NCBI GenBank assembly: GCA_047285535.1
Contig: JBJBDC010000001.1
Span: forward strand, 1,216,136-1,280,135
Origin: Synechococcus sp.
Lineage (GTDB): Bacteria; Cyanobacteriota; Cyanobacteriia; PCC-6307; Cyanobiaceae
DNA length: 64,000 nt
Reading direction: 5' to 3'
A program made the position numbers and the translations under genes. Below are positions 31,895-49,992 of the stretch, in pieces. Under the pieces are notes generated by a model. The model did no database searches, had not been told where the DNA came from, and was given only the letters and a program-made list of their open reading frames with translations. Each line of letters opens with the position of its first letter. The first letter of the stretch is position 1.

Positions 31895-33265
31895 ATGAGT
31901 CCCGCTGCGACCAAATTGGCTCAGGCCACATCCAAACCAAGCCCTTCAATCATCATGCTGGCCGATGAGAAAGGTCAGCCCAAAGCGGTAAAAGCCAAAA
32001 CAAAATCAGCTTCGAAAGCCAAAACAACAAAGAAGGCAAGCGCTAAAACAAAAGCAAGCAGCACAAAAACAAAAGCAAGCAGCACAAAAACAAAAGCAAG
32101 CAGTACAAAAGCGAAAGCAAGCAGTACAAAAACAAGCAAAGCGAAAGCAACTTCTACCACCGCCAAGTTGGAAGCGTCAGCTGATCAACTCCTTGCAGCG
32201 ACTGACAAAACGACCGCAGTCGCAAAAATCAGCGATAGCGCAGCAACGTCAGCCACAGACGCCAAAGCAGAAGCCAAAGCCAAGGTTCTTGCAAGTATTA
32301 AAGTTGGGCCGAAAGGGGTTTACACCGAAGACTCCATTCGTGTTTACCTTCAGGAAATAGGAAGAATCCGCCTTCTGCGTCCAGACGAAGAAATTGAATT
32401 AGCTCGCAAAATTGCAGACCTGCTCCACCTCGAGGAACTGGCTGCACAGTTTGAAAGCGATAACGGCAAACTTCCTGTCACGAAGGAATGGGCTGCACTG
32501 GTGGAAATGCCAGTGATTCGCTTCCGACGAAGGCTGATGCTTGGTCGTCGCGCAAAAGAAAAAATGGTGCAATCCAATTTGCGCCTTGTGGTGTCGATTG
32601 CCAAAAAATATATGAATCGTGGCCTGAGCTTTCAGGACCTCATTCAGGAAGGCAGCCTGGGACTGATTCGAGCTGCTGAAAAATTCGACCACGAAAAGGG
32701 CTACAAGTTTTCGACTTATGCCACTTGGTGGATCCGTCAAGCGATTACCCGCGCCATTGCCGATCAATCCCGAACCATCCGACTACCGGTTCACCTCTAC
32801 GAGACCATTTCCAGGATCAAAAAAACCACCAAGGTGCTCAGCCAAGAATTCGGCCGTAAGCCTACAGAGGAAGAAATCGCAGAATCGATGGAAATGACCA
32901 TCGAAAAATTGCGATTCATTGCCAAGAGTGCCCAACTTCCCATCTCGCTTGAAACTCCCATTGGCAAAGAAGAAGATTCACGCCTAGGCGACTTCATCGA
33001 AGCCGATATCGAAAATCCAGAACAAGATGTTGCCAAAAATCTTCTCCGCGAAGATCTTGAAGGAGTTCTTGCTACGCTTAGCCCTCGCGAAAGAGATGTC
33101 CTACGGCTTCGCTACGGCCTCGACGATGGTCGCATGAAAACATTGGAAGAAATTGGACAAATCTTTGATGTAACCCGCGAGAGGATTCGTCAGATAGAAG
33201 CCAAAGCACTCCGGAAATTACGCCATCCAAACAGAAACGGAGTTCTCAAGGAATACATCAAGTAA
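31895..33265 (+). CDS. rpoD: Principal RNA polymerase sigma factor (RpoD/SigA)
   Basis: [44 protein letters not shown] and [19 protein letters not shown]. Confidence 0.98.
32045..32128 (+). repeat. 21-bp tandem repeat, 4 copies, in rpoD region 1.1
   Basis: aaaacaaaagcaagcagcaca twice, then ...cagtaca, then aaagcgaaagcaagcagtaca; encodes K(T/A)KASST four times. Confidence 0.92.
33121..33263 (+). repeat. Left copy of the 143-bp direct repeat (rpoD 3' end, putative attL)
   Basis: Aligns without gaps to 49850-49992 with 10 mismatches. Confidence 0.95.
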
Positions 33266-33448
33266 CCTGAGTATTACTGAGACCTCTGTCTCTAATAGGG
33301 TTTTTATTGAGCATTAAGATGTGTTATGGCCTGGTTTTTTGAAATCAGGGCCCCATTTTCTCAATCCTTAAAACTCACTCTTTTGATCATGCTTCTGAGC
33401 GTGCTGATCGGTACGTGATGCATGAGTAGCTCCAGGAACTGAGTACAT

Positions 33449-33473
33449 AGGCTCCACTTACGTGGGGCTTTTT
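33449..33473 (+). terminator. Probable intrinsic terminator
   Basis: aggctccac-ttac-gtggggctt hairpin (9 bp including G-U pairs) followed by ttt. Confidence 0.6.
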
Positions 33474-33956
33474 GATGAGTACCCATTCGGAGGATCAAGG
33501 ATTCGGAAGCACCGCTCCTCTTGAAGAGATGCAGGCGTGATAACAACTGATGCAAGCTGATTTGCAATGAATAGATCAAGCACTAGGTCTTCAGAAGAAT
33601 TTCCGCAAAAAAGGGGGTTCTCAAAGTCATCGACAGGCTTAGACCTTCACGCTTGTTCAGCAAGTTCTGCAAGAGCTACCCATTCTGGTGGAAGGGAACA
33701 CTGCAATCGCACAGGTTGCCTACTTTTGTAGGGAAGCGATTACCGGTGAAGAAGAGTAGTCGATCCCAATCGCGGCTCATCACCAGAGTTCGAGCCGCTG
33801 GCCTGGAACAGCAAAAGCATGTCGCCATGGGTAAAAAACCCTCCCCTGGGGCTCGAAATAAGAGTGTCGTAAACCATAGAAGCCCTCATCAAAGGAAGCG
33901 CGAAAAACCTAAAGAGAAGAAGAAATTTTCATTCAAACAAGACAGCAAAGTTTAGA

Positions 33957-35681
33957 GTGAATTTATTTGAAACTATGGAAATAAAATCATTCCTCGAAGG
34001 CAACCAAGACTTGGCAGAAGCATTGAGTGCTCTTCCCTTCATTGAAGAACTAGCCGAAACCGATTACGGCAGTATCTCGCTCAATAAATTTATCAACATC
34101 ATGGGTTCGAACGGATTTGAGGCTGAGAGTTTAAGAAGATCACTGCAGCAAGCCGTAGAATCTCTAATTGTAAATAACGAAACCCCACCAGAAGATCCCT
34201 TCAGCATTTCACTGGACGACTGGAAGCCATTAATTGGTGATGAGAGATCTAACGAAATAATCACAGCAATATCAAATTTGAATAAAGAAATTGACCTTGT
34301 AGCTGGTGGGACATCGTCCTCCAATCACAAAGCAGCTAGGGCGGTAGGAGCGACAGTAGTTGCAGCAGCCGGAGCTGCTACGCTTACATTCGCTGCAAAG
34401 AAATTGAAAGAGAACAAAAATAACATTGAGAAAGCCATCGAGATACAGGCCAAAATTGAGGCTGGCACTTTCGTTGAAGGCCGCGACATACCAGCAACAT
34501 GGACAAAAGATTGGCAGAACGCTAAAAAGGAAGTCGAAAGAAAGGCCAAAGATGCTGGAGTGTCACTGGAGGAGTATGAACGACGTGAATTTAGTGATGA
34601 ATTTTTCAGGGTGGGTGGACTGAAAGGCTTAGAGAAGCCTGTTATCAGTGCAATAGACAAAAATTTCCCCATTACAATCCTGCCGGAAGACTTAGCGAAG
34701 GCAAAAACAGCCATCAAGAAAGAACTGAAAACACAAGCCGATAATTTTGCAGAAACACGGTTTGGGATGGAATTCACCCTACATGGAGCAAAAGAAGAAA
34801 TAAAATCAATTGCCGATCAGATGATTGAAGAAAAGGTACTGACGCCAAGGATCTCGACAAGAAAGGTAGACGAATTAGCAACCAAAGCAACAGAAGCTGT
34901 ATTAGAATCATCAATAAAGACATTATACGAAAAAGATAAAGATCTAATAAAATTAATCAGCCCAGAAAACTTAAGAAGATTTGTCAAAGGCAAAATATCT
35001 GAAAGTGATTTAATTGAAAAAATAAAGACTAACAGCGCCTTTGCGAGGGCAAGTAAACGGGCAATACAATTCACAGAACAAGAGAAAGAAATGCTCTTGA
35101 AAGTTCCAACTGAATTCAAAAATAACATCCAAGGGATAAAAATAGACCTGAAAAAGTCAATGAAAAGCGCTTTAGACGATAAATTCAAAGAGACAATCAA
35201 CGAAAGAGCGGGGTTGGCGTTCAAGGAAGATTTTAATAAGGAAGATTTCAATCTTGAAACCTTAATGCCTAATTTAATAGACGATCATACTAAAATAAAG
35301 AAAATTTCCGCCAAGATCACGGCATTATCCGAGTCAGATATAATTAGCGATAAATTTGGAGGTGCAATAACCAAGGATATTGTTAAAGGCGCAGTGCAAG
35401 ATGTAAGAACAGAAGTCAGAAAAGAACTGAGAGACGTAATTGAAAAAGACTTAGTAAGCGCAGGGGAAATGCGTATGGAAAAAGAACTTGACATCGAAAC
35501 AGGAAAAGTTTCGGAAAAGATAGAAAAAGAATATATAGATAAATTTGAAACCCTTATAGATGATACAGCCAAAACGGATGTGGCCAAAGTAGCAAAAGCA
35601 TTTGAAAAAGATATTGCAAATCAACTTGTTAACGACCTTTCAGACTTTGGCGGTGGAAAGATAATAGATAAAATGGAGTAG
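33957..35681 (+). CDS. Large double-glycine-leader protein (574 aa), putative cargo of the adjacent exporter; start possibly ATG 33975
   Basis: EIDLVAGG at aa 111-118, then an Ala/Gly-rich hydrophobic helix and a long K/E-rich helical body. Confidence 0.75.
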   Translation: MNLFETMEIKSFLEGNQDLAEALSALPFIEELAETDYGSISLNKFINIMGSNGFEAESLRRSLQQAVESLIVNNETPPEDPFSISLDDWKPLIGDERSNEIITAISNLNKEIDLVAGGTSSSNHKAARAVGATVVAAAGAATLTFAAKKLKENKNNIEKAIEIQAKIEAGTFVEGRDIPATWTKDWQNAKKEVERKAKDAGVSLEEYERREFSDEFFRVGGLKGLEKPVISAIDKNFPITILPEDLAKAKTAIKKELKTQADNFAETRFGMEFTLHGAKEEIKSIADQMIEEKVLTPRISTRKVDELATKATEAVLESSIKTLYEKDKDLIKLISPENLRRFVKGKISESDLIEKIKTNSAFARASKRAIQFTEQEKEMLLKVPTEFKNNIQGIKIDLKKSMKSALDDKFKETINERAGLAFKEDFNKEDFNLETLMPNLIDDHTKIKKISAKITALSESDIISDKFGGAITKDIVKGAVQDVRTEVRKELRDVIEKDLVSAGEMRMEKELDIETGKVSEKIEKEYIDKFETLIDDTAKTDVAKVAKAFEKDIANQLVNDLSDFGGGKIIDKME

Positions 35682-35833
35682 GTCAAGAAAAAAAAGATAA
35701 GTTCCGACAATTAATTGTGAATATGAGCGCTTCAATAGTGTTATTTCTAAGCAGGTTGCTCATTAGCAAATTGAGCTGTCAGGTCGCTTCCTATTGGAGT
35801 GTCACGGACCAACCATGACCAAACAACTCATAC

Positions 35834-36569
35834 ATGCAAAATCCAATGCCCATCTCACTCACAAGAGTCATCTGAAATTTAGCTCTCATCTCCTGAAAGA
35901 CCACCGACCCTGGCTGAAATGGCTGCAGAAGCTGAGATCGTTCTGCGATGTACCTACAGTTGGCTGAACTGGCGTCACAACAACAGGCTGTGAAACCTGG
36001 AGCGCGTGCCTCCTGTACAGCCCAACAAACACCTGACACCAGGCATCATGAACCACATCGAAATGCAAAAACTGTACTGCTTTTGTAAAGCGAGAAAACG
36101 CAACTTGGAAAAAACAGCGTCGCTAATCTGAAGTGAGAAACGACCAAGGCTGTGTTGCCATCGAAAAGGCCAAACGACTGGCCTAGTCGGAGTGCTTCCC
36201 GAAGAGCAGCAGGGCACAGGGATCGGCTTGATGAGCCGTGCATGGGACTGATTTAACGACAAAGGTCTCGAATGCGATCAGATAATGAACGACAACAGCC
36301 CCAACTACATCACACGCAGAGTTGCCAAAGCTTGCAAGTCGCTGGGCCTTGAGCTCAGACGAACCACTCTGTACACACTGCGGAGCATCGGCAAAACTAA
36401 ACGTTTTGAAAAATCCTTGGTAAAGAGTGGAATTACGAATGTTCGTCAAGAACGCTGAGGAGCACATCCCCTGGCTGCCCTGGGATCTCTGAATCTATAA
36501 CCAGATCAGGGGGCAAACGGTCATCGAAACAATTCAGCTCACCAACGGTTCCATCAGCTGCTCTGCTAA
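35834..36569 (+). pseudogene. IS481-family transposase relic
   Basis: Frameshifted fragments: NAHLTHKSHLK...LAEMAAEAEIVLRCTYSWL (N-terminal HTH), MNHIEMQKL, and GLECDQIMNDNSPNYITRRVAKACKSLGLELRRTTLYTLRSIGKTKRF (rve core, compare TDNG...YTPRTNGKAERF). Confidence 0.85.
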
Positions 36570-36814
36570 TCAACAAGGGAAAAATCAAAGGCAAGTCACA
36601 ATGACAATGCCTTAAATGAATAGAAAGCATGTCAGCTGAAATTAAGTTGCGTCGAAATAAAATCGCAACCGATAAATGACTGGAAAAGACTACGAAGAAA
36701 AAACAAAATAGAGACCAATACATTCAACCAACCATCCCTCATAGACAAATAAAAAATTCATAAAAGCTTTGAGTCAAAACTATTGCGCAAGTCAAGAAAA
36801 ATATGGCCTCATGC

Positions 36815-36859
36815 TTGTTTTGTATATTTGATTCAAATCGAATCAAATATACAAAACAA
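36815..36859. repeat. Perfect 20-bp inverted repeat with a 5-nt spacer
   Basis: ttgttttgtatatttgattc-aaatc-gaatcaaatatacaaaacaa. Confidence 0.95.
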
Positions 36860-36950
36860 AGCAAGACGAGTCTCAAATTCATGAAGAGTTATTGCAGAAT
36901 TAAACCGGCTTAACGGTGGCTGCTAAAAATATAGATATCGATATTTCTCA

Positions 36951-37268
36951 ATGACAAGTTCTACAGCTTTGGACACAAAGGCTGACAGTGAAGGTAGCGA
37001 ACAGTTGTCTGAGAAATTTATTGAATGTCTACAAACTCAAGCTGGTGAGATTGCAGAAAAATTCCCAAACATTAACCCAATGGAGGCTCACGCCTGTGCC
37101 TTGATCTTTGTTGATACATTGGCCAAACTTCATGAGGCTGGACTCGAGGAGTCAGTTAAAGCTGGAGATGCAAGGCAAGCAGGATCTTGGACCAGAGACC
37201 TTACCATTTTTGAAACAGTCATATCACTCCTCAGAAACATCCAACCACTTGATATAGACGCAATATAA
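36951..37268 (+). CDS. Acidic helical hypothetical protein (105 aa)
   Basis: ATG-started ORF in an AT-rich region with protein-like composition. Confidence 0.7.
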   Translation: MTSSTALDTKADSEGSEQLSEKFIECLQTQAGEIAEKFPNINPMEAHACALIFVDTLAKLHEAGLEESVKAGDARQAGSWTRDLTIFETVISLLRNIQPLDIDAI

Positions 37269-37491
37269 TTGTTTAAAGGAGCTATAAAAAACATAATCTT
37301 GGAGATTCCAAGACAATGGAAAGATCATTTATGAATCAATATTCCAAGTCACATCTAGATTTAGCGATAAACAAATACGATCAAAAGAAAAAAATTGAAT
37401 CCTCTGCCTGAAAATACAGTTAGTAAAAAGGATTGCTAAACGAGAAGCCATCACAGAATCTTTGCCATCTAAGCATCTTTTTTTCTAAATT

Positions 37492-37517
37492 TATCCATAC
37501 CTAGAAAGGTATGGATA
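37492..37517. repeat. Perfect 11-bp inverted repeat upstream of the exporter operon
   Basis: tatccatacct-agaa-aggtatggata. Confidence 0.85.
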
Positions 37518-37845
37518 CAAGATCTAAACTGAACAAAACAATGTTCAAAGCGACACCACGTCTTTGAAAAGGGATAAAGAATTGAACAAAAAGGATATTG
37601 AATAAACACAAGTAACGTCAGGTCACGGTTTATTTGCTGTTAACGAATAGAAGCATCACCATGTTAGATATAAAATCATTGGAGGATCGAAGCGAGCAGA
37701 AAGCAAGTAGATCTAATTCATTGCACAGGGAGGAGCAATGGTCGCAATATAAGACAAACCAGCAAGCGTTAGGATATACATATATTTTATTTAAGAGCCT
37801 TGATTTGATGGAAAATAAACGTAAAATACAAAAAAATTAGAGCCT

Positions 37846-39051
37846 GTGAAAAACAAGCTGACAGAAGCAGCTGTCAAGAAACCCTTTCTCATAACGACAG
37901 TCTGCTTGTCAGCCTTAGGAGCTACGACACTAATTTGGTCAATATTTGGAAACCTTAAATTAGAATCAACAGGCATCGGAGTTATTTTGAGGGGCAAACA
38001 TTTTGTCACCATTTCAGCGCAAACAAGCGGAGTAATCAATAAGCAATACTTTAAATTAAACGATAAAGTACTTAAAGGTGAAAAAATTCTGTCTATGGCT
38101 AGCGAAATTAATAAAATCAGATTAGAGCAATCTCTTAAAACAATAAGCGAAACTCAGCCTTTAATTAAGCAAGCAAATAAAGCCGGAGAAGCAGATCTAA
38201 AAATTGCATCTGATTCGATAATCCGAGCGAGAAAGAATTTAGAGGCATCAATGCCAAAACTACAAGAACTTATTAAAGATCAAGAAATTGCATACAACGG
38301 ATTATTGAAGTTGTACTCAAATGGGCAGGTTGGAACACAAGAACTGGCAAATTCATTTTCGACACTATCAAGGCTCAAGCAACAAAGACAAGAATTAAGA
38401 CGACAGCTCCAAAATATAGAATCCAACTACAATCAACTACTGCAACAAAATGCTCAAAATGAAATACAATTAAGTTCAGAGATGATTGCCAATCAATCAC
38501 TGAAAGCTCAATTATTGCAGAAAATTAAACTCGCAAAAAATATACGAGCGCCGTTATCTGGGACAATCGTAAGCTACAACGTACCTGTTGGTGGATTTGC
38601 ACAAGAGGGAGATCCTTTAATAACGCTGAGCCCATCAGAAGGGCCACTGCGGGCAATTATCCTGGTTGGCGCAAAAGATTATGGAAGAGTCAAAGTAGGC
38701 AATAAAGCTTTAATCTCTCCAAGTGCTAGCCCGGCAATTAGATTTGGATATATTGAAGGTAGAGTATTTTCAAAGTCAGAAGCACCTGCAACAAGTGCAG
38801 AGCTAATAAAAGCATTTGGCTCTCAAGAGATAGCTCAAACATTAATCAATAGTTTTTCAAGGCAAGGAAGAGCTGATCTGCCTTATCTTGTTGATATTAT
38901 CATTGATCAAAAGAATAATGAGCCAATTTGGACCCTTGGGAAGCAACCACCGTGGGGTGTCAGTTTAGGAAGTGAGGCATCTGTGAGAATAGTATCAGAT
39001 GAAACGAGTCCTATCAGTTTAGTAATACCCTTTATACGAGGAGGGATATGA
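37846..39051 (+). CDS. HlyD-family adaptor, NHLM bacteriocin-system type
   Basis: N-terminal TM (..IWSIFGNL), ISAQTSG and IRAPLSGTI lipoyl halves around a coiled coil, RFGYIEGRV, and C-terminal W..GKQPP...PISLVIP. Confidence 0.88.
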   Translation: MKNKLTEAAVKKPFLITTVCLSALGATTLIWSIFGNLKLESTGIGVILRGKHFVTISAQTSGVINKQYFKLNDKVLKGEKILSMASEINKIRLEQSLKTISETQPLIKQANKAGEADLKIASDSIIRARKNLEASMPKLQELIKDQEIAYNGLLKLYSNGQVGTQELANSFSTLSRLKQQRQELRRQLQNIESNYNQLLQQNAQNEIQLSSEMIANQSLKAQLLQKIKLAKNIRAPLSGTIVSYNVPVGGFAQEGDPLITLSPSEGPLRAIILVGAKDYGRVKVGNKALISPSASPAIRFGYIEGRVFSKSEAPATSAELIKAFGSQEIAQTLINSFSRQGRADLPYLVDIIIDQKNNEPIWTLGKQPPWGVSLGSEASVRIVSDETSPISLVIPFIRGGI

Positions 39052-41186
39052 ATATAAATAACGCATTAGATTCTCTCCTTCGAAATGCATCGAGACAACC
39101 TCCATTTAATATTATTTTTCAATCAGACGAAACAGAATGCGGATTAGCATCATTAGTAATGGTGCTCAATATTTTTGGCAAAGATATCACGATCGAAAAA
39201 ATACGCAATGATTATGGCTCTACGAGAGGTGGGATGTCTATCGGTGAATTACGAAAACTTTCCATACTCTACGGTCTATTAGCATTGCCAGCAAAAGGAA
39301 ATCTGATTAAAAATGATAAATGCCCTGTAATTATATTTGCACACGGGGATCATTTTGCTGTTCTATGGGAAACCAAGAACAATCAATACTTCATAGCCGA
39401 TCCAGCTGATGGCAACCTTGTGTTGTCTCAATCAGAATTTGATGATTATTACTCTGGCATTTATATTGAGTTCAAAACAACTAGTAAATTCCAGATTACA
39501 GAAGCCAAAAATATTTCAAGAGAGCAAGATTCAACGCCGTCGCTGTCTACACTTTTATATAACAACAAAACCATAAACAGGTTAATAATACTATTTGCGT
39601 TTATTGCAGCATTTTTCACATTATTCAATGCAGCAATTCAAGATGTGTTCATGACCTATGTAGTAGAAGAAGGCCTTACTCTTTGGACAAAAGGCATGAT
39701 ATCTATAACAATAATAGTATCTATTGGCTTAGCATTGGCAACCTTCATGATGCAGATTGCTGCGCAAAGACAACTTCAAAACTCACTTCAGGGATGGAAT
39801 ATTGAACTTTTTAGTTCACTGTTTAGGGCTCCATATCAGTTTTTCATCAATAAAACATCAGGATTAATTGTCTCAAGATTCAATCAACTTGAAGAATCAT
39901 TTACCGGTTATCAATCATCAGTCATTGCGGCTTTAACAGGAGCCCTAAATCTTCTTATATTTATAGTCGCCGTAACAGTAGTCAGTATTCCTCTTGCATT
40001 TATTTCGGTAATAGGAATTGCAGGTTTTATGGCGGTTGGCTATAGGTTCCTCGGAATTAATATACAAAATAATTACCGATTAAGGGAAGCAGAATGTAAA
40101 GTATCTTCTTCTGAATTCAAACTTATACAAGGAAGAAATCAAATAACATTAGAAAACGGTGAGCAATCAATACTCAGAGAATTATCTTCTGGCTATTCAG
40201 CCTTGGGCACATCTCAACTCTCAATACAAACAACAGAGATTAGAAGTGAATTCATGCTTGGCATGATTGATCAATTACTTAACACTTTCCTTCTTATTAT
40301 ATCCTCTATTTTAATCGTCAAGGGCAATCTGACCACAGGAACTTATGCCGCTATCAATGTAATTATTGGAACAGCACTTGAGCCTATTCGGTCACTGGCT
40401 TCCCTAGTAGAGCAACTTCAGAATTCAAGGTTAATTTATAAATCTGCTCTTGACCTTTATCAACCAGAATCAAATGAAGTGATCACCACAAACAATGAAT
40501 TGAATATGGATAACCCTATGCTTAGCCTTTACAAAGTAACATTCAAGTATTCACTTTATGCAGAACCAATCTTTGAAAATATAAGTATCAGAATTGCTCA
40601 TCCTAAAAAGGAATGTATGATTGTAAGGTTATCCGGATCAAGCGGATCTGGGAAAAGTTCATTACTCAACGTGATTTCTGGATTGGTAAAACCGAACACG
40701 GGTTTGGTCAAAGTCTTTGGGATCAACACATCAAACACATCTCCTCAAAAAATCAGGCATATTATTCAATATATCGATAGAAATGTAATCATAGTAAAAG
40801 GATCAGTGGAAATGAACACTAGATTGGGAACAAGTGCAAGTCATAGTGAATACGAAGAGGCTGTGGAGATGTTGGGGCTAAGTTCACAAACAATCTTTAG
40901 CCAACAAAGCAAGCGCTACCTTGCTGATCAATCATCTATTAGCGTAGGTCAATCAATCATGATTGCCCTCGTCCGATCAGTTCTGATCAAACCCAAGTTA
41001 CTCCTAGTTGATGAAGCACTAGTCAGTATTCCTGAACAACTTCATGTCGGAATAATACGTGGGCTGAGAACACTGGGAATAAGCGCAATCATTGTTCAGC
41101 ATGGTAATGACGGCTTTATTTCAAAACTTGCCACTATCGATCTTGATAGGTTTAAAAATGAATCCGGGGAGGCTCTGGAGAAATGA
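39048..41186 (+). CDS. Peptidase-containing ABC transporter (C39 domain + TMD + NBD)
   Basis: QSDETECGLASL (Cys), DHFAVL (His), IADPADG (Asp), TM helices, Walker A GSSGSGKS and Walker B LLLVDE. Confidence 0.92.
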   Translation: MNINNALDSLLRNASRQPPFNIIFQSDETECGLASLVMVLNIFGKDITIEKIRNDYGSTRGGMSIGELRKLSILYGLLALPAKGNLIKNDKCPVIIFAHGDHFAVLWETKNNQYFIADPADGNLVLSQSEFDDYYSGIYIEFKTTSKFQITEAKNISREQDSTPSLSTLLYNNKTINRLIILFAFIAAFFTLFNAAIQDVFMTYVVEEGLTLWTKGMISITIIVSIGLALATFMMQIAAQRQLQNSLQGWNIELFSSLFRAPYQFFINKTSGLIVSRFNQLEESFTGYQSSVIAALTGALNLLIFIVAVTVVSIPLAFISVIGIAGFMAVGYRFLGINIQNNYRLREAECKVSSSEFKLIQGRNQITLENGEQSILRELSSGYSALGTSQLSIQTTEIRSEFMLGMIDQLLNTFLLIISSILIVKGNLTTGTYAAINVIIGTALEPIRSLASLVEQLQNSRLIYKSALDLYQPESNEVITTNNELNMDNPMLSLYKVTFKYSLYAEPIFENISIRIAHPKKECMIVRLSGSSGSGKSSLLNVISGLVKPNTGLVKVFGINTSNTSPQKIRHIIQYIDRNVIIVKGSVEMNTRLGTSASHSEYEEAVEMLGLSSQTIFSQQSKRYLADQSSISVGQSIMIALVRSVLIKPKLLLVDEALVSIPEQLHVGIIRGLRTLGISAIIVQHGNDGFISKLATIDLDRFKNESGEALEK

Positions 41187-43180
41187 TTGCTTATTCAGCA
41201 TCTGAGTATGCTCGTTATCTTCTTGAAAAAAAGAATGGCGAATTGTTGAGCGACCAAAATATCAAGACCAACTTAAGTGATCTTGCCGACAATGAATCGT
41301 TAACTCCAAGACAATTAGTTGAGACACTTTCATTTTATTTGCAAGTTAATGAATTACCCTACAAACACGAGACTGCAGTTTATTTGTCGGGATTAGGTAA
41401 AACAGTGTTTGCGGTATTAGAGACTGCAATTATAAGTCTGGATGATCTCGCAACAGCCAAAAACAACGATGAAATGAAGGATAGCAGTCTTTATGTTTTG
41501 AGCTCTAGTGTTCCGCAGAAAAAGCTAAGTAAGCTTTTGTTCCTCCAAGCGTTCATGAAAAGTCGTTGGAGTATGATACTAACACTTTTAATACTCGGTC
41601 TTCCAGCAGTAATTGCGCCTGCAATTGCAGAATTGCTGCAACAACCATTGTTTGATTCATTAATTCCCGAAGGCAGAATTCCCGCTATATTATTAATAGG
41701 AATAGCATCTATTCTGTTGCAAGCTAGTGGGCAAATCATAAGCAGTGTAAGCAGTCTGCTTTCTACTTACTTTACAAATAATATAGAGCTCGAGTCTAAG
41801 CTTGCAACTGCTAAAAGATTTTTAGATGCCAAACAAGCCTCTATTCCTCAGAAAGATATTGGCTCGTGGCGAATTACATTTAGTGTTGCAAGCTCATTTA
41901 TTGAATCAATTCAGTCGATATTCATTTCAATTCCAATTGCGATTATTTCGCTGATCGCGAATCTGCTAGTCGTTGGTGCATTTACAGATCTTCGTGCCAT
42001 CTGGCATTTATTCCTACTGATGCTTTTGCCGACTGTAATTAGTTCCATCATATCATATATCAGCTCCAACTACTATATAAAAATAATGGCCCAACAATCA
42101 TCCATAGAAACAACAATCTACGAAGTGGTGAAGGATATAAGGGAAATTTGGATGCTCGGATGTGAATCTATTTATCTAAATAGATTCTTTAGGTCTCGAA
42201 AAGCGATGTCAATTAACATGCTCTCAGCAGGTTTACTACAGTCACTATCTTCATCGTTCAATAATTTCTTTCAAGGGATTCTATACGCTTACATCTTTTT
42301 TGAGTTTTATCGCTCAACAGAATCGTCTTCATCGGAGCTATCTGTTGGTGCGCTCCTAGTGATGTATTTTGCGGTTGGTACCATTGGTGGTTCACTAGCA
42401 TCAATCTCCTCTGATCTCGTTGATCTAGCTCAAAGCCTCCCTACCTACTGGATGCCAAATGCTATTAGGGATATTGATGCCTTTGAAAGAAAGTCGTACT
42501 CAAAGGAAAAATGCCCAAGTAAAATCATACTCTCTGATGCAACTTTCTTGTACGGTGACATTCGAGCACCATTTCCGGAACCTATTAATATTAAGTTAGA
42601 ATCGGGTTTCAATTATGCATTAGTAGGACCATCTGGTTCAGGAAAAACAACTTTACTGAATATCATTGCGGGTCAACTATCTTTAACAGAGGGTAAGATG
42701 GAGATCTTTGATCGATTCAACCAAAAGGTAGATATATCACTGTCTGATTGTAATATTCTATATCTTGGGCAAAATACTAGTTTATATGGCTCGATTTTAC
42801 GGGATATTCTTGATCCAACAAAGTCGTTCACAGATAAGCAACTGTATAGTGCCATTTCAAAACTTAATCTAGATGAAATCATGGAATCACTTCCACTTAA
42901 ATTAAAAACACCAATCAATGAATTCAACAGAGATCTCTCTCTCGGACAGCTTCAACGCTTTAAACTTGCAAGGGCACTTCTTACTGATTATGACATTATT
43001 ATGAGCGACGAAATAACATGTCATCTTCCAGAAGATCTGCATTTACAGGCCATTCAGTTATTAAACAATAGATCAAGAATTCACATTTCCTCATTACATA
43101 GACTCTCTGCTGTTTCTCTCTTTGATAAGTGTATTACTTTGAATGGTAATGGAGAAGTTAAGGAGGCCGTTTCAACATGA
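41183..43180 (+). CDS. ABC transporter TMD+NBD without peptidase (second NHLM-type subunit)
   Basis: TM helices, GPSGSGKTT, LSLGQLQRFKLARALL, IMSDEIT and LHRL; 4-bp overlaps with both neighbours. Confidence 0.9.
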   Translation: MIAYSASEYARYLLEKKNGELLSDQNIKTNLSDLADNESLTPRQLVETLSFYLQVNELPYKHETAVYLSGLGKTVFAVLETAIISLDDLATAKNNDEMKDSSLYVLSSSVPQKKLSKLLFLQAFMKSRWSMILTLLILGLPAVIAPAIAELLQQPLFDSLIPEGRIPAILLIGIASILLQASGQIISSVSSLLSTYFTNNIELESKLATAKRFLDAKQASIPQKDIGSWRITFSVASSFIESIQSIFISIPIAIISLIANLLVVGAFTDLRAIWHLFLLMLLPTVISSIISYISSNYYIKIMAQQSSIETTIYEVVKDIREIWMLGCESIYLNRFFRSRKAMSINMLSAGLLQSLSSSFNNFFQGILYAYIFFEFYRSTESSSSELSVGALLVMYFAVGTIGGSLASISSDLVDLAQSLPTYWMPNAIRDIDAFERKSYSKEKCPSKIILSDATFLYGDIRAPFPEPINIKLESGFNYALVGPSGSGKTTLLNIIAGQLSLTEGKMEIFDRFNQKVDISLSDCNILYLGQNTSLYGSILRDILDPTKSFTDKQLYSAISKLNLDEIMESLPLKLKTPINEFNRDLSLGQLQRFKLARALLTDYDIIMSDEITCHLPEDLHLQAIQLLNNRSRIHISSLHRLSAVSLFDKCITLNGNGEVKEAVST

Positions 43181-44832
43181 GATTATTTTCATTAAATACC
43201 GGAGCTAAACTCTTCTTTTTAATAATTACCTCTTTTTTCAATCCTTCCTCTTATTCCTCTGCCAGCGAAATCAATGCTAAGTACAGCAATCATAGTTTTT
43301 CAGAAAAAGCTTGCAAGGATGAAAGGATTAAGGCAAATTTATTGCTAGCAGGAAGATTGCCTACATTCTACAATTGTTCAAACAGAATTGCTTTTAATTC
43401 AACTCCCACAAAATCGAAGTCTTCTGCAAAAGAGTTTTTTAATCTTGAGCCACTTTCCAACCCGAGTATTAAATCATTAGAGTTTGACTATAAAGCATCC
43501 GTTTATAAGGTTAAGTCAGCATATGGTGCATGGTGGCCAAATGTTTCAATGTCAAATAGTTCTATATTGTTTACAGATATACTTTCTAGGCAAAATTATG
43601 ATGCTCCAACCTCATCAACGTCGTCTCCTTCGAGTCGGGGAACGAGTTTTAATCCTATCGATCGCTCTAACCGAAATAACACAAGTAACTCTGATCAACT
43701 AACCGGTTTCAATACTACTTACGCTAACTATATTCAAGCGTATCCAGTTATCACTGTTGAATGGAATTTTTTAGATCCAACTCGTTATCCAAGCATAGCT
43801 GCCGCAAAGAAGCAAAAACAATTAGCATTGCTCGAGCTCGAGAAAACAAAATCAAATCTTCAAAGTAAAATAAGTCAACTCTCAGTTGAGTATCGTTATT
43901 CTCTTTATACGATTGGAGAGTTAATTCAAATTATGAGTATTCAAAAAGATATTATTTCACTTACAAAGTCTCTAGTTGACCTTAAAGAGTTGCCAAGAAT
44001 TCAACAAATTAAAGCACTTCGTGAGCAAGCTCAGTCCCAGAATCGTCTGAACCAAGCCCAAATTAGACTAGCTAATATTAAATCTGAGATTGCATCTATC
44101 ATTCTCCCTCAAATTCAACATTTAAAGCTCGACACCGTAACGGTAGATGATGTCATTAATGATTATTTACTTAAAGAAAACTACACTGAAAAATCATTGA
44201 AAGAATGGAGTCGTGACTCTGATACGACATATCAATTGGCATTAGAAAACTCTTCTAAAGTTAAAGAACTAACATTACAAGCAGGCATTTCTAAAGACTC
44301 TGCCAACCAAGAATGGGGATCTATACTGCCAACTATTGGATTTCTTGGTTATATTACATATCAGTATACAGCTGGAAGCCAAAATTATGCACCTCCTGAG
44401 CAGCCTAATGGTGCAGCGTCGGCGGTGCTAACAAATTATTTTGGACTTTCAGTGTCATGGAATCTCTTTGATGGATATGCCACTCGGCACCAGGCAAGAG
44501 CGTATGAAATGAAAGAACAATCACTATTAAAGAAAATAGAACAAGAAGTCATCACTCTGCGACCATCGACACAGCTACTACTGACCAAACTTAATTTCTC
44601 AAAAAAGCAAATTGATCTAGCAATCAAAGATTCGTCTGCTGCAAAAATAATCTCTTCAGATGTTGAGGCCAGATCTCAGTATGGTTTAGGCAGTCAATAC
44701 GATTATTTTAGTGCCCTTATTGATTATCATCAATCAAAGATCTATCTTCTCGAAGCATTATCTGAATATAGTCGAATATATCTTCAATTGTCACGTTTGA
44801 CAAGTTCAAACACGTCTGGTTCGTCAATTTAA
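43177..44832 (+). CDS. TolC-family outer-membrane efflux protein
   Basis: Signal peptide, twofold repeat (AYGAWWPNVS...VEWNFLD and EWGSILPTIG...GLSVSWNLFDG), and RSQYGLGSQYD C-terminal helices. Confidence 0.88.
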   Translation: MRLFSLNTGAKLFFLIITSFFNPSSYSSASEINAKYSNHSFSEKACKDERIKANLLLAGRLPTFYNCSNRIAFNSTPTKSKSSAKEFFNLEPLSNPSIKSLEFDYKASVYKVKSAYGAWWPNVSMSNSSILFTDILSRQNYDAPTSSTSSPSSRGTSFNPIDRSNRNNTSNSDQLTGFNTTYANYIQAYPVITVEWNFLDPTRYPSIAAAKKQKQLALLELEKTKSNLQSKISQLSVEYRYSLYTIGELIQIMSIQKDIISLTKSLVDLKELPRIQQIKALREQAQSQNRLNQAQIRLANIKSEIASIILPQIQHLKLDTVTVDDVINDYLLKENYTEKSLKEWSRDSDTTYQLALENSSKVKELTLQAGISKDSANQEWGSILPTIGFLGYITYQYTAGSQNYAPPEQPNGAASAVLTNYFGLSVSWNLFDGYATRHQARAYEMKEQSLLKKIEQEVITLRPSTQLLLTKLNFSKKQIDLAIKDSSAAKIISSDVEARSQYGLGSQYDYFSALIDYHQSKIYLLEALSEYSRIYLQLSRLTSSNTSGSSI

Positions 44833-44924
44833 TCCCATAAATATACAAATATTTTCAAATAATTGTATACGTGCATCTAATTGTTGGTTGTTGTGTTTGA
44901 GAAATTGAGAAACGAAACAAGCCC

Positions 44925-45107
44925 CTATCGTGCTTCATCTAAAATAAAAAACAGACAACATGGTATCAATGAAATACAAATTGCCAGTACTAAGTACTGA
45001 TTTATTGATTGATTTAGCAAAGACTTAAGCAAAAGAACTGCGAACAATGGGTGAATTATTAATAAGCACAAGATCACTATCGTTAATTCATAAATCCCCA
45101 GAGCCAT
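44925..45107 (-). CDS. Possible 60-aa two-TM membrane protein
   Basis: From ATG 45107: MALGIYELTIVILCLLIIHPLFAVLLLKSLLNQSINQYLVLAICISLIPCCLFFILDEAR. It could be an AT-rich shadow ORF. Confidence 0.35.
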   Translation of the reverse strand: MALGIYELTIVILCLLIIHPLFAVLLLKSLLNQSINQYLVLAICISLIPCCLFFILDEAR

Positions 45108-45206
45108 AAAATGCTGCAACCAAATATTAAGAATTAAGTGGCAAGATGATTGGGCGGCACCATTGGGCCATAAGATCATTAAAATGAGGAGTAAATAGTA
45201 GGAATA

Positions 45207-48200
45207 GTGAGCATGGGAGATTTCAATTTATTTTACCAAGCTCTTCAATCTTTAGATAACGACATCACCATTTTAGGCACAAGCGAGGATTTAGTTGTCG
45301 CTGATTGGCTCAAAACAGAGGGATATGATATTACCTACATTCTTGACTGCCTTAAAAAAATTAAAAGAAGCAACGGTGAAACTAACTCTAAAACACTCAC
45401 CGTTGAAATACTTGGTGACAAGAGAAAACGTGAACTGCTGCTAAGAAGCTATAGAGATTCCATTGATAGTACTGCCGGTGGAATGTTGACTTCTGTAGAA
45501 AGAGTAAGAGAAGCATCTATTAAAGGTCTAAAGAATCATCGCGACTTGCTGGAGAAAGCCCAAAGTGAAATTGAAAAAGGAAAAATAGCAAAGGAGATGG
45601 TTCCTACAGTTGAAGGTGGAATTGAGCCAGCATACATCAATAAAATATCCTCAATAAAAGAACTAGTAAATTCTCGGCCTGTTCATCTATATTGGAAAAA
45701 CTATCAGGAAATGCGAGATATCGGTTGGCATGCTTATGCAAAAACACGGTTAATTAGCTTCATAAAATATGCTGTTAGGAAACAATATGCGAATTGGAAA
45801 GCTGCTTATATTGCTGCTCTGGGATCATCAGCAAATAGGGGGAATTGGTCTGGTGGATATATGAACGGCACTAAACAAGATGGTTCTGGTTACATATCCT
45901 ATGGAAGAAATGGAGATCATTACACATCATATTCGATATACGGAACTTGGGATGACCCTTTTCAAAAAGGTGGTTCATTTAATATCAATATTTATGGTAT
46001 GAATAGCCAATGGAGGCTAGAAGGAAATAAGCATAATACTGCAATTACGGCTTCTATTAATGAAAGTAATGGCAAAATTACCTATACATCCTACATAGAG
46101 CCTGATAATGCTGGTCTTATTGCATTACCAAAATACACAGGAGAGGTGACATCTCGACAAATTCTAGAGAAATCAAAACAATTCCAAACTGACGAGAACA
46201 TTGTTCACTCTTATGAGAATGCAACTCTAGGCTCATCTTTTGCAGCTGTCGTAAGAAAGCATTATCCAAATTTCAATATCAATGAGAAAGTCAAAGATTT
46301 TCAAAAAATCTTGGCTTATTCAGCCATTGCCTATGTTGTCAAAAGAACCTACATTGCTGAAGGAAAGATTAATAGCCAATTTATTAATCAAGCGCTTAAG
46401 CGATTGACTGAGACTGGCACGTTACATGATGCATTCGCTTTAATTAACTATCAGGCGCGCATGCAAAAATTACATCTTGATCATATACTGAGTGCCACAA
46501 ATCTCAAACACAAAGCCAAAGCCTCGCGTGTTTGGGCCTCTGAAGAAGTTGCTCTTGATAGAGTTGCGAGAAACTCAATTCTCAATAGTAGCCGAGAGTA
46601 CCAGCGATTAATTAATGATGGACTTAGTAATAAAATGGCCGAAAGAGCCGCCAACCTGACATTTTTCTCCGATTTGTTGGTCTTTGACAGCTTTATATAT
46701 AGTGCTCCTACAAAAGACATTAAACTAGATTTTACGAAAAAGGACGCAACTATTGCTAATTACTCTCGCATCGCATTACCCGTTATTATTACCCAAGAAG
46801 CAAAGATCAGCAAGACGATTCTGCGACAAGAGAAAACGTTTAAATACATTCCTAAGTACACTAATTTAGTTCTAAGCTTCGAGAAACTAAAGTATGAGGC
46901 GTTTAGGGCGATATCAGTTGGCTCTTACGACTATTTCAAGCAGTACCTGGGTTTTCATCCGATTCATCGTTCGCTCAGGTTCATGAAAAATTCAGTTATT
47001 TTACCGACAGAAAAATGGATTGAAAGTTGGGGAAATAGTGCCTTGTGGACACAAATAACAACTGATGCCTTTTCAACTGTTAATTTTGTAGGGTTTTCAT
47101 TAACACGAGCAATTGTTCACTTACCTAAGCACATTTATGAAGATACTAAAAAGCTAGGTGAGCAGCTCGTTCATTTATTTAGTGGTGGTGATACTTGGGC
47201 TGGAATTGGAGGGGGCATATGGCGAGATATTAAAGGTCCTGTCAAAACCATTGAATTATTGGGTGAAAATGCCCTACTTGTTTTCGCGAGCTCCTTTGAT
47301 CCGCTATTCTATAAAACAAAGTTTGCAAAATCAATTATAGGCAAAGATAAAAACTTTGGGCAACTTATTGCAGATGCATGGCACTACGAATGGAACAAAC
47401 AGCGAATAAAATTAGCGCTTACTTTGCACAAGATCAATGCCCCGATAAGAAAGGAACTAAGTGAAATCACGAATGGTAAAATACCGAATCCAAGCGCATC
47501 ATTTTTTAGTAACCATGAAAATCTTAATGCCAAAAAAAATCAATTAACTCTGAAACTTTTAATCTCTTTCAGGTCCGGAATAACGAGCAAGTTGCAAAAT
47601 CATGCTGACGCAATTAACACTGCAATAACGATTGCTCAAGCCAATAAGTTTAAGACGACAAAAGATCTCCTTGTGCTTTCACAAGGCGGAAAAGTAAACA
47701 TTAATGGAAAAACAATTAGCGGCATGGAAATCAATGATGCACTCCAGTCATTAATTGCGAATATGGCTGACAAATATATTGCTTCAAAAGATTATACAAA
47801 TAAGCAAGAAAAGACTTTTGTTATCAATAATCTGGCCACGACAGAATTTAGAGATGGATTTCAAGCATGGACTCAGCGACAATTGGCAATATTTAAAAAC
47901 GAAATGAAGATGTATCAATACATAAATCAACAAAGTACTCGCTTTGAACAATTAGCTTTCAAGATCTCTATAGCCAACAAAATCAATCGGGGAATTAAAG
48001 ATGAAGGTTCTTCCTTGAAGTATCAGGTAGGTCATTTATGGCATCAAGGAAGAGCCAATACATTCTTTTTCAAGGCGTTTGATAAGCCCTTGCAGCATTC
48101 ATTCAATGCTTTATCTACTGGTAAGAAAACCAATGAAGCAAATAAGCAACTGAATCATTTTCAAAGAAATCATAAGCCCGGTGAAAAGCTATTTGCTGAC

Positions 48201-49265
48201 ATCCTTCTAACAGAAACAGCAGATAGAGTTATGCGGAATATTGGAAATATTCACTATAAAATTGAAACTGGAGCATATGCTATTGGTACTTCTAAATATC
48301 AGAAGGACTTGCCTTTCGCTAAAAAAGAGCTGCTTCTTTCGATGCGCTTGCATCAGAACACAGCTCAAGAGATTGAAGAATGGAGCAAGAGGATTAAAAT
48401 CACAAATCGACTTGGAAAGATCACACTGGATCAAGCTAGTCTTTCTAAACTTAAGAATGCAACATTCAACGGGCTACTGACAAAAGCCAAACAAAACATT
48501 CATCTTGTCACTGCCGTTGATTCAAGCTTAGTAAAAATAGCCAATAAAGAGTCATCTATTCTCAATAAACCGATCACAGTGCAAGACGTAATTACAGGGA
48601 CGGAGAATTGGTGGGATCGCGCAGTAAGTAAAGGATACTTTTATCAGCATTGGAAAACCGTTGTGACGACTCGCTCATCTCATAATGCGGCACTTGCAGC
48701 GTTATTGAATGATGTTGAAATTCTTCAAGGTGGTGGAAGCATGACATTTGGACAATTTATTAACTCTCTTCCTCAAAATAAGAATTGGAAGCTTTCACTC
48801 GCTCCTCATGCAATTCCTTCAAGGGGTCCATCTTCAATTGCTATTAGCAACTTAAATATCAAAGCAGGAGTCCTTACACCTAAAAAAGTAAATCAAGTGG
48901 CAAAACAAAAGGTGAAAGTTCCTATTCTTTTGTTCAAAAACCGTATAAAATTTGCGAGAAACATATGGAAAAAAATCACTGGCAGTGGCAAAAAAGATGA
49001 TCTTCTCCAGCAAATCGAACACGCTGAAAAGAAGACTATTGTCAATGCAGATGAAAGACGCGTCGCCAAAGAGCTAGGAGAAGACGAGCTTAAGGAATTG
49101 GATAATCTTCTTGTTGAGGATGCGATCAAAGTTGAAAGTGAAGCGGAATTATCAATTGAAATTGAAGAATCCAACGCACTGAGTTCAGTTGACGAACTTA
49201 TCGATACAACTTTAACTGACGCAATAGACACAACAGAGGAAACTATTGCAGAAGCTATAGTTTGA
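45207..49265 (+). CDS. Giant double-glycine-leader protein (1352 aa), putative exported cargo or toxin; start possibly ATG 45213
   Basis: 4-kb open frame with an AGGA element upstream; SIDSTAGG at aa 85-92; leader resembles that of the 574-aa protein. Confidence 0.78.
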   Translation: MSMGDFNLFYQALQSLDNDITILGTSEDLVVADWLKTEGYDITYILDCLKKIKRSNGETNSKTLTVEILGDKRKRELLLRSYRDSIDSTAGGMLTSVERVREASIKGLKNHRDLLEKAQSEIEKGKIAKEMVPTVEGGIEPAYINKISSIKELVNSRPVHLYWKNYQEMRDIGWHAYAKTRLISFIKYAVRKQYANWKAAYIAALGSSANRGNWSGGYMNGTKQDGSGYISYGRNGDHYTSYSIYGTWDDPFQKGGSFNINIYGMNSQWRLEGNKHNTAITASINESNGKITYTSYIEPDNAGLIALPKYTGEVTSRQILEKSKQFQTDENIVHSYENATLGSSFAAVVRKHYPNFNINEKVKDFQKILAYSAIAYVVKRTYIAEGKINSQFINQALKRLTETGTLHDAFALINYQARMQKLHLDHILSATNLKHKAKASRVWASEEVALDRVARNSILNSSREYQRLINDGLSNKMAERAANLTFFSDLLVFDSFIYSAPTKDIKLDFTKKDATIANYSRIALPVIITQEAKISKTILRQEKTFKYIPKYTNLVLSFEKLKYEAFRAISVGSYDYFKQYLGFHPIHRSLRFMKNSVILPTEKWIESWGNSALWTQITTDAFSTVNFVGFSLTRAIVHLPKHIYEDTKKLGEQLVHLFSGGDTWAGIGGGIWRDIKGPVKTIELLGENALLVFASSFDPLFYKTKFAKSIIGKDKNFGQLIADAWHYEWNKQRIKLALTLHKINAPIRKELSEITNGKIPNPSASFFSNHENLNAKKNQLTLKLLISFRSGITSKLQNHADAINTAITIAQANKFKTTKDLLVLSQGGKVNINGKTISGMEINDALQSLIANMADKYIASKDYTNKQEKTFVINNLATTEFRDGFQAWTQRQLAIFKNEMKMYQYINQQSTRFEQLAFKISIANKINRGIKDEGSSLKYQVGHLWHQGRANTFFFKAFDKPLQHSFNALSTGKKTNEANKQLNHFQRNHKPGEKLFADILLTETADRVMRNIGNIHYKIETGAYAIGTSKYQKDLPFAKKELLLSMRLHQNTAQEIEEWSKRIKITNRLGKITLDQASLSKLKNATFNGLLTKAKQNIHLVTAVDSSLVKIANKESSILNKPITVQDVITGTENWWDRAVSKGYFYQHWKTVVTTRSSHNAALAALLNDVEILQGGGSMTFGQFINSLPQNKNWKLSLAPHAIPSRGPSSIAISNLNIKAGVLTPKKVNQVAKQKVKVPILLFKNRIKFARNIWKKITGSGKKDDLLQQIEHAEKKTIVNADERRVAKELGEDELKELDNLLVEDAIKVESEAELSIEIEESNALSSVDELIDTTLTDAIDTTEETIAEAIV

Positions 49266-49440
49266 AAAAGTGGTTATCCCTCCACTCAGTTTCGAACAAA
49301 GCACGGGAGTCGAAGCTGCTAGGCACTCATTCTGACGGTTAAAAGCCGAAGTACAAAATCCTCTCTACTCGGATCCAAACCAGGGTTTCATCAGCTGGTT
49401 GATATTCAGGTTGCTCCCAATCGGTCGCAGCCTCAAGATT

Positions 49441-49563
49441 TTTTTAATTTGATGCATGTCACACCAATGGTTGGTCATAAGCATGATCTCGCGACTCAAC
49501 CGGTCTTAACTTGATCAGCGTAGAGATCTGTTCGTAAACATATAGTCCAGATCATGCGGTTTT
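49441..49563 (-). pseudogene. Possible eroded tyrosine integrase C-terminus
   Basis: Translation KPHDLDYMFTNR...REIMLMTNHWCDMHQ (with 2 stops) echoes the spacing of PYDLRHAWAVR...MMGHSVAIH; it lies next to the right island boundary. Confidence 0.3.
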
Positions 49564-49849
49564 CAACTCCCACCCAAATCCTGCAGAAATGTTCAGTGAT
49601 GGATGAGAAATAGTTCTTACTCATCACCTGTATAGAAACCACCAAGACATGAAATATGTTCAATGACTGAATAAAGCGAGGAGCAACGCCTGATGCTCGC
49701 CTACGGGCTAGGTGATGATGGAACTGGGCTGGCCGCCAGCCATTTCAAGTGGTTGGCATCGCTTCAATTTGGCTTTATCGAACTGGACTGTGCTTTAATT
49801 CATGACACCTCTATTGATATCAACAGCCAGCTCACGCAAGCCACATCGC

Positions 49850-49992
49850 CGGCGATGGACGCATGAAAACATTGGAAGAAAGTAGAGCAATCTTTGTTGT
49901 AACCCGCGAGAGGATTCGTCAGATAGAAGCCAAAGCACTCCGGAAATTAAGCCATCCCAACAGAAACGGAGTTCTCAAGGAATGCATCAAGT
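49850..49992 (+). repeat. Right copy of the rpoD 3' end (putative attR, sigma region 4 relic)
   Basis: 133/143 identical to 33121-33263; translates as [47 protein letters not shown]. Confidence 0.95.

Follow-up and report, generated by a model that had tools for sequence, protein, structure and literature searches.

We analysed a window of 64,000 nucleotides (the whole stretch considered here) from the genome of Synechococcus sp. (GenBank assembly GCA_047285535.1, contig JBJBDC010000001.1, positions 1,216,136 to 1,280,135), in which a 16.7-kb block at 33264-49992 constitutes an insertion in the 3' end of the gene for the primary sigma factor (Table 1). The genes of this block, all on the forward strand, encode in order a large protein termed here P574, a small acidic protein (orf105), a HlyD-type periplasmic adaptor, an ATP-binding cassette (ABC) exporter subunit with an N-terminal C39 peptidase domain (C39-ABC), a second ABC subunit (ABC2), a TolC-family outer-membrane factor and a second large protein, P1352. 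Both large proteins have a predicted N-terminal leader ending in a double glycine (GG), the type of site cut by C39 peptidases. The composition of the island suggests that a pump of this type may be able to export proteins far above its supposed limit of about 10 kDa.

A low-GC island in the primary sigma factor gene

The block is bounded by two copies of a 143-nt direct repeat (93% identity, spacing 16,729). The left one provides the sigma factor gene with its functional 3' end, and the right one is a displaced and diverged remnant of that end which still matches Sigma70_r4 (PF04545, E = 4.3e-6). The guanine + cytosine (GC) content is 32-45% at about 34-49 kb versus about 53% in the flanks. 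In another genome of the genus (G030) the sigma factor has a C-terminus identical to the one encoded here, and because its gene runs uninterrupted into the sequence found after position 50000 of the window (G030 locus 173-2436), the site is empty in this relative. The direct repeat, the GC contrast and the empty site together establish the insertion, and the block is a horizontally acquired island of a marine-type cyanobacterium. The 16.7-kb insertion in a sigma factor gene with an empty site in a relative had not been noticed in the earlier reading of this DNA. Flanking direct repeats derived from the target, together with a relative whose site is empty, are features of site-specific integrative elements; a further one, a gene for an integrase, recombinase or other mobility protein, had no Pfam match in the open reading frames (ORFs) of the island or in 38 stop-to-stop frames from the gaps between them. 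There is no tRNA in the window, and no excision or circle joint was seen among the contigs compared. A 16,737-bp contig considered as a possible excised circle was rejected, as it is an assembly unitig spanning 33191-49927 between the repeat cores.

A divergent exporter cassette with an active-type C39 peptidase

The four exporter genes occupy 37846-44832 and are translationally coupled, with a 4-bp overlap at each of the three junctions. This bears out the first-pass annotation of the sequence, which had described an operon of HlyD, an intact C39-type ABC protein, a second ABC protein and TolC. Pfam detects Peptidase_C39 (PF03412) at 93 bits, and ABC_tran and ABC_membrane in both ABC proteins. 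C39-ABC aligns over its full length with PCAT1 and ComA, and its residues Gln25, Cys31, His102 and Asp118 align with corresponding residues of PCAT1, which we take to be the catalytic residues of that enzyme. All four positions are invariant in four of four island orthologues, and C39-ABC has the oxyanion glutamine and the Cys/His/Asp triad that define active-C39 exporters of the PCAT/AMS kind. ABC2 is presumed to be the heterodimer partner of C39-ABC. Judged from these domains, the island encodes a complete PCAT-type type I secretion apparatus, comprising HlyD, a presumed heterodimeric ABC exporter with one active C39 domain, and TolC.

The best NCBIfam models for HlyD, C39-ABC and ABC2 are TIGR03794 (102.3 bits, cut-off 156.2), TIGR03796 (244.1 bits, cut-off 853.3) and TIGR03797 (141.0 bits, cut-off 709.4), the models that define the NHLM cassette. 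The three-gene layout of that cassette (HlyD adaptor, C39-ABC, peptidase-free ABC) is present, and none of the three proteins reaches the curated cut-off. The earlier assignment to the TIGR03794/03796/03797 type is thus correct as to the best models and too narrow as to membership: since the scores fall far below the cut-offs and below those of a canonical-looking cassette in the same genome, from whose ABC pair the island pair differs by 2.8-3.8-fold lower scores, the island cassette is a divergent sister lineage outside these equivalogs. This lineage is rare, with ABC2 matching proteins in two of 401 genomes of the class (E <= 1e-40) and the HlyD profile matching five of 401 genomes of the family, this genome included (E <= 1e-25).

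Two large proteins with predicted double-glycine leaders

The earlier reading placed a double-glycine site and the mature N-termini TSSSNHK and MLTSVER in two same-strand proteins flanking the operon, with mature lengths of 456 and 1260 residues, and these sites and lengths stand. The protein of 1352 residues likewise stands, and the one given as 574 residues is probably 568 residues long, as its homologues begin at Met7. In the 574-residue numbering the predicted leader of P574 ends in A116-G117-G118, with isoleucine at position -7 and valine at -4 relative to the site. That of P1352 ends in A90-G91-G92, with isoleucine at -7 and threonine at -4. Substrates of active C39 domains carry an N-terminal leader that closes with G-G/A/S and is hydrophobic at positions -4 and -7. 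Both proteins show this signature, P1352, with its threonine, in the relaxed form only, and homologues of the two proteins conserve the motif.

P574 defines a family of six clusters in which the GG is invariant. An exhaustive phmmer search of 1.84 billion representatives returned six matches at E <= 0.001, of which one is the query and another, P0013, was judged spurious since it is a repeat protein. Across five homologues the leader is 62-95% identical and the mature part 29-66%. The predicted mature P574 has a basic N-terminus, then a Gly/Ala-rich hydrophobic helix (residues 123-142 of the 568-residue form) and a long all-helical charged region. Its AlphaFold2 model is all-alpha with a mean predicted local distance difference test (pLDDT) of 57; Foldseek recovered no PDB match at E <= 0.001, and in VIA-align wide the best hits (Z up to 7.2) were all generic helical bundles, so that no fold was assigned. 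YaxB (Z 5.8) and XaxA (Z 5.1) lie inside the noise range for helical proteins. A complex prediction of the C39 domain (residues 1-155, four-row alignment) with the P574 leader region (60-140) scored 0.02 and weighs neither way.

Among 5.8 billion proteins the P1352 family has three clusters, and a further, distant homologue is encoded in the genome G063. T89, G91 and G92 are invariant in three sequences of the family, and the stretch directly after the GG is hypervariable. We found no hydrophobic segment in P1352, and the AlphaFold2 model of residues 93-800 was unusable (pLDDT 35). Neither large protein has a match in Pfam, NCBIfam or PADLOC or a usable match in the ESM Atlas, and a PDB sequence profile search for relatives gave nothing meaningful. 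The suggestion in the first-pass annotation that these proteins are allelopathic or anti-grazer toxins gained no evidence from any of the family, fold and atlas searches. Class II bacteriocins are of Gly-rich hydrophobic character. Solely because its mature start resembles them in this respect, our best guess, held with low confidence, is that P574 might be a membrane-active protein aimed at competitors.

Table 1. Features of the island and its borders (positions in the 64,000-nt window)
Feature	Position	Strand	Remarks
Primary sigma-70-type factor gene	31895-33265	+	First in the gene order of the island region
Left copy of the 143-nt direct repeat	33121-33263	+	Functional sigma factor 3' end; left island border
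P574 gene	33957-35681	+	574 aa from GTG; probable start 33975, giving 568 aa
Predicted P574 leader	33975-34310	+	112 aa, ends ...EIDLVAGG; GG codons 34305-34310
Predicted mature P574	34311-35681	+	456 aa, read from the GG site
Inverted repeat	36815-36859	.	Perfect 20-nt arms separated by 5 nt; ORF-free surroundings, orf105 following after about 90 nt
orf105	36951-37268	+	Small conserved acidic protein; 63% identity to a gene of the G063 island
HlyD periplasmic adaptor (membrane fusion protein)	37846-39051	+	HlyD_3, HlyD_D23; TIGR03794
C39-ABC, ABC exporter subunit with N-terminal active-type C39 peptidase	39048-41186	+	Pfam, TIGR03796, PCAT1 alignment
ABC2, second ABC permease/ATPase subunit without peptidase domain	41183-43180	+	ABC_tran, ABC_membrane; TIGR03797
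TolC-family outer-membrane factor	43177-44832	+	OEP at 117 bits
P1352 gene	45207-49265	+	1352 aa
Predicted P1352 leader	45207-45482	+	92 aa, ends ...DSIDSTAGG; GG codons 45477-45482
Predicted mature P1352	45483-49265	+	1260 aa, strongly acidic C-terminal tail; read from the GG site
Right copy of the 143-nt direct repeat	49850-49992	+	Displaced, diverged sigma factor 3' remnant; right island border

Related islands and the conservation of the leaders

A survey of homologous loci, which the first-pass annotation had proposed, recovered low-GC islands with this divergent cassette lineage and large proteins in four further picocyanobacterial genomes (G063, G133, G002 and G066), so that in all five islands the cassette is paired with adjacent large GG-leader proteins. 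In G063, which forms clade 1 with the island described here, the cassette proteins are 40-51% identical to ours and are accompanied by a P1352 homologue of 1323 residues and by proteins of 861 (...GAAGG), 478 (...GMAGG) and 225 (...AQAGG) residues, as well as by the orf105 homologue and a LuxR-type regulator. The predicted mature starts of the 478- and 225-residue proteins are like that of P574, with a basic stretch and a Gly/Ala-rich hydrophobic helix. In the clade 2 islands of G133, G002 and G066 the cassette proteins are 22-31% identical to ours, and an orthologous protein of 580-597 residues, with a 121-residue leader ending in ...LR[AS]VAGG, is encoded directly after TolC. Scans of genome, metagenome and viral contig collections produced no confirmed relative.

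The five families of putative cargo (P574, P1352, 861, 478/225 and 580) are mutually unrelated by BLASTP and are built alike: an N-terminal region of 90-140 residues leads up to a GG, after which come a variable stretch and, at the C-terminus, an acidic tail. Within the genome samples, cargo and cassette are found in exactly the same members: a profile of the 580-residue protein matches three of 401 genomes of the family, which are precisely the three with a clade 2 cassette, and that of P1352 matches two of 46 genomes of the genus, precisely the two with a clade 1 cassette. In two of the three cargo families with several members the alignments indicate that the leader is far better conserved than the body of the protein and that conservation breaks at the GG. 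For the distant members of the P574 family the leader is 62-66% and the mature part 29-32% identical, with 9-10 of the last 13 leader residues conserved and four of 11 in the next 13 positions. For the 580-residue family (P0017, P0018 and the G133 protein) the respective values are 60-73%, 45-57%, 9-11 of 13 and 4-5 of 12. In the P1352 family they are 30-60%, 33-74%, 3-6 of 13 and one of 11, with indels.

The predicted leaders are 92-139 residues long across the cargo families, and a G-[YF]-[DENS] motif lies 40-75 residues into all of them, as seen by eye in the alignment. A Nif11-like label, which this motif had suggested, was dropped, for none of seven leaders matches PF07862, TIGR03798 or TIGR03793 even at E up to 10. 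The idea of a common leader family was likewise dropped, as neither leave-one-family-out hidden Markov models (HMMs) nor hhalign gave significant results; the best hhalign comparison with the Nif11 domains of this genome reached a probability of 7% (P = 0.005), for the 580-residue family only. The leaders are thus diverse and have in common only the terminal motif and the general layout.

In the clade 2 islands the 580-597-residue protein, whose C-terminal tail is a tryptophan-rich run of S-D-W repeats, has as neighbours a JmjC hydroxylase (27 bits) and, at 160 bits, a member of the tryptophan halogenase family. This raises the possibility that the 580-597-residue protein might be a very large exported protein that is enzymatically modified, perhaps halogenated. 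The description of the cargo as unmodified in the earlier reading accordingly holds for the island in the window and not for the clade 2 islands, with their two candidate modifying enzymes. The 861-residue GG-leader protein of G063 (locus 3928-6513) consists of long, near-identical acidic repeats in which internal GG and GGG sites abound, and may be either a polyprotein or a surface fibre.

Other genes and potential substrates in the island and the genome

The sole gene in the 2.2-kb stretch between P574 and HlyD is orf105, which is present in both islands with a P1352-family gene and in none of the other three, BLASTP having found no homologue in the islands of G133, G002 and G066. In a different genus of the family, seven of 10 genomes have weak relatives (22-30% identity). 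We regard orf105 as a candidate partner, chaperone or immunity protein. The inverted repeat upstream of it may be an operator, a hairpin or a terminator; the only Rfam match, to a miRNA model far under threshold, falls on this palindrome. About 750 bp of the island, at 35751-36500, have a host-like GC content of 48-52%, with no ORF, no Pfam match and no second copy in the genome. In the sigma factor gene itself a 21-nt tandem repeat in five overlapping copies (32018-32143) encodes an N-terminal stretch rich in K, T, A and S. Small indels occur at this repeat in a metagenome contig, and the sigma factor is 440 residues long in G030 versus 456 here.

ORF, gap-frame and regular-expression scans agree with the earlier statement that short precursors are missing from the island, as are enzymes of the LanM, YcaO and radical S-adenosylmethionine (SAM) kinds. 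The three enzyme families have no match in the nine ORFs scanned or in the 38 gap frames. Among ORFs of 25-200 residues in 33264-49992 no plausible short GG precursor was found; the five matches of the regular-expression scan are all on the minus strand, two of them inside coding genes, and have weak GS or GA motifs. PF07862, TIGR03798 and TIGR03793 have no match inside the island either, so that the short-core precursor typical of NHLM systems is lacking there. Elsewhere in the genome there are eight TIGR03798 and 11 PF07862 matches above the cut-offs. At about 1.82-1.83 Mb (1818593-1834971) lies a canonical-looking cluster for a ribosomally synthesized peptide with post-translational modifications (RiPP) with its own TolC, HlyD, C39-ABC and ABC2, the latter two scoring 678 bits with TIGR03796 and 541 bits with TIGR03797, which is under the cut-offs and far closer to them. 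It encodes a 116-residue precursor (...LQAVAAGG|TCQST...) with a Cys/Ser/Thr-rich core, whose likeness to NHLP precursors is a TIGR03793 match under the cut-off (41.7 bits against 50.9). The large ORFs that follow it are, at a guess, YcaO-type modifying enzymes. This separate NHLP-like cluster with its own cassette in the same genome is a second observation that is new here.

A proposed mechanism and its alternatives

We propose that each cargo is produced behind a long N-terminal leader (112 residues in P574, 92 in P1352), whose end, with its hydrophobic residue at -7, Val or Thr at -4 and Ala-Gly-Gly, would dock in the C39 domain. The peptidase would then cut after the Gly-Gly, and the unfolded products of 456 and 1260 residues would be threaded stepwise through the conduit of ABC subunits, HlyD and TolC to the outside. 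We consider it probable that the C39 subunit binds the leader at its end and cleaves after the GG, and that the ABC pair, HlyD and TolC then export a large unfolded product in many steps; how the cargo is recognized, cleaved and exported, and in which direction it is threaded, is inferred from the sequences. More broadly, we tentatively suggest, with rather less assurance, that these loci represent an undescribed class of type I secretion, in which a heterodimeric ABC exporter with an active C39 domain cuts a leader of 90-140 residues after Gly-Gly and moves proteins with 450 to over 1200 residues across the two membranes by processive threading. Such systems would be carried as islands of exporter plus cargo among marine Synechococcus and Prochlorococcus, with an interchangeable and non-homologous cargo that is possibly modified in one clade (for instance by halogenation of the tryptophan-rich tail) and that perhaps serves in competition between picocyanobacteria. 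The earlier claim of a C39 exporter dedicated to giant leader proteins thus gains comparative support from the five islands, the break in conservation at the GG and the co-occurrence of cargo and cassette, and falls short of proof.

Several points weigh against this proposal. Active-C39 exporters are stated to carry cargo of up to about 10 kDa (PMC8277102), and export of MccV falls off at 116 residues (PMC10231218). Among the 673 ORFs of at least 400 residues in this genome, which served as the chance set, 254 (38%) have a GG at residues 60-150, 51 carry the strict motif [LIVMF]xx[LIVMF]xGG and 163 its relaxed form. Given the first and second of these frequencies the GG motif alone is not beyond chance, and what exceeds chance is its conservation and context rather than the motif itself. 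P1352 has a threonine at -4, the leader of its G063 homologue ends in ...YTGAG, a poor fit to the consensus, and the leader in this family is not better conserved than the body (60% vs 74%, and 30% vs 33%). Leave-one-family-out HMMs missed the omitted leader family in all five tests (best E = 0.12), and profile-profile comparisons of the leaders with one another and with Nif11 gave probabilities of at most 7%. Moreover, the co-occurrence counts overstate the independence of the observations, because the genomes are kin and two of them belong to one genus.

The cargo could alternatively leave C-terminus first by way of its acidic tail, with the N-terminal region tethered to the C39 domain and the GG cut last, or never cut, leaving the protein anchored. 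All five unrelated cargo families do end in strongly acidic tails, the leaders of 92-139 residues are unusually long, and a review has the cargo of PCAT1 enter the cavity C-terminus first, its leader being kept on the C39 domain (PMC8277102). Neither RTX nor any other known C-terminal secretion domain was found with Pfam, and the conserved catalytic residues argue for real cleavage; we consider this alternative unlikely. Less likely still, in our view, is that the cassette exports small GG-leader peptides that are encoded elsewhere or were missed, the giant proteins being unrelated cargo genes of the island with coincidental GG sites. Such a reading could draw on the TIGR03798 and PF07862 matches elsewhere in the genome, on the commonness of GG motifs in large ORFs and on the small cargo of the known active-C39 exporters (PMC8277102). 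It is weakened because the NHLP-like precursor of this genome has a cassette of its own; most of the Nif11-domain ORFs elsewhere were read as having no GG site, a large GG-leader protein adjoins the cassette in every one of the five islands, cargo-cassette co-occurrence is exact in the samples, and conservation breaks at the GG in two families.

The large proteins might, on the other hand, never be exported and have a cytoplasmic part in the island, in an accessory, scaffold, immunity or regulatory role, as the failure to match the cargoes to any known family or fold would allow. We judge this very unlikely, because the arrangement of N-terminal region, GG, linker and acidic tail shared by five unrelated families is hard to explain for unrelated cytoplasmic functions. 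Finally, they could be polyprotein-like precursors that are cut at internal GG sites into smaller active peptides during or after export. The highly repetitive 861-residue protein of G063, with its many internal GG and GGG sites, and several further GG dipeptides in P574 and P1352 speak for it; yet the internal sites of the latter two are neither periodic nor placed after leader-like motifs, and P0002 does not share the second strict site of P1352 (VPTVEGG, around residue 147), which makes this the most improbable of the readings considered. We favour, within the limits stated, leader-directed cleavage and stepwise export of the large proteins.

Comparison with known systems

The island resembles the tycheposons, which are integrative islands in the genomes of marine picocyanobacteria (bioRxiv 10.1101/2020.12.28.424599), in being a low-GC cargo island between the full and the partial 3' end of a target gene. 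Unlike in tycheposons, the target is the protein-coding gene of the primary sigma factor and not a tRNA or tmRNA gene, and neither an integrase or other mobility gene in the island nor, among the contigs compared, an excision joint was found.

Among secretion systems one of the closest is the NHLM/NHLP-N11P bacteriocin export cassette, which consists of a TIGR03794 HlyD protein, a TIGR03796 C39-ABC protein and a TIGR03797 second ABC protein (Haft et al. 2010, PMC2887384). The island has the same three-gene layout and these models as the best NCBIfam matches for all three proteins, and its predicted leaders, like the sequence logo of that source, show a hydrophobic residue at -7 and a terminal Gly-Gly. 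It differs in that its proteins score below the curated cut-offs, that TolC is encoded within the operon, and that precursors of the NHLP or Nif11 type and modifying enzymes are missing, the candidate substrates having 568 and 1352 residues as against about 100.

Type I secretion is commonly divided into systems with an active C39 domain and a small cargo with a cleaved N-terminal GG leader, and systems with a dead or no C39 domain and a large cargo with an uncleaved C-terminal signal (PMC8277102, PMC10231218). The exporters for large cargo in their classical form have a degenerate or no C39-like domain, and their substrates an uncleaved C-terminal signal and RTX repeats (PMC8277102). With HlyB/HlyD/TolC and HlyA, and with PrtDEF, the island has in common the conduit of ABC protein, adaptor and TolC, a cargo of more than 50 kDa and acidic C-terminal cargo ends. 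It departs from the HlyB/PrtD type in its intact peptidase and the conserved N-terminal GG leader, and falls outside that class; Pfam detects no RTX repeat family in either cargo.

With the PCAT/AMS exporters (PCAT1, ComA, CvaB/MccV and LahT) the island has in common the conserved catalytic positions and an N-terminal leader ending in GG. The leaders here have 92-139 residues, and the exporter is by implication a heterodimer with one peptidase domain only, both unlike the exporters of that group. Class II bacteriocin leaders have about 15-25 residues and those of Nif11/NHLP precursors about 60-90. A length of 60 residues is given for the Nif11/NHLP type in PMC10783134. The main departure is in the cargo, which in PCAT/AMS systems is at most about 10 kDa (PMC8277102, as above) and here has predicted mature lengths of 456 and 1260 residues, outside the definition of that class and about 5-15 times the known active-C39 cargo by residue count. 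In a literature search of partial coverage we came across no account of a GG-leader cargo of more than 50 kDa for an active-C39 exporter. If the proposal is true, the rule that divides type I secretion fails, as an exporter whose peptidase is active would have 456 and 1260 residues of cargo to carry. Proteins of that length cannot be accommodated in the single-cavity 'alternating access' picture derived from PCAT1, so that processive threading would be required. Large proteins would also have a secretion tag in the form of a leader that is taken off during export, and there would be unknown secreted giant proteins that may shape the interactions among globally abundant marine cyanobacteria.

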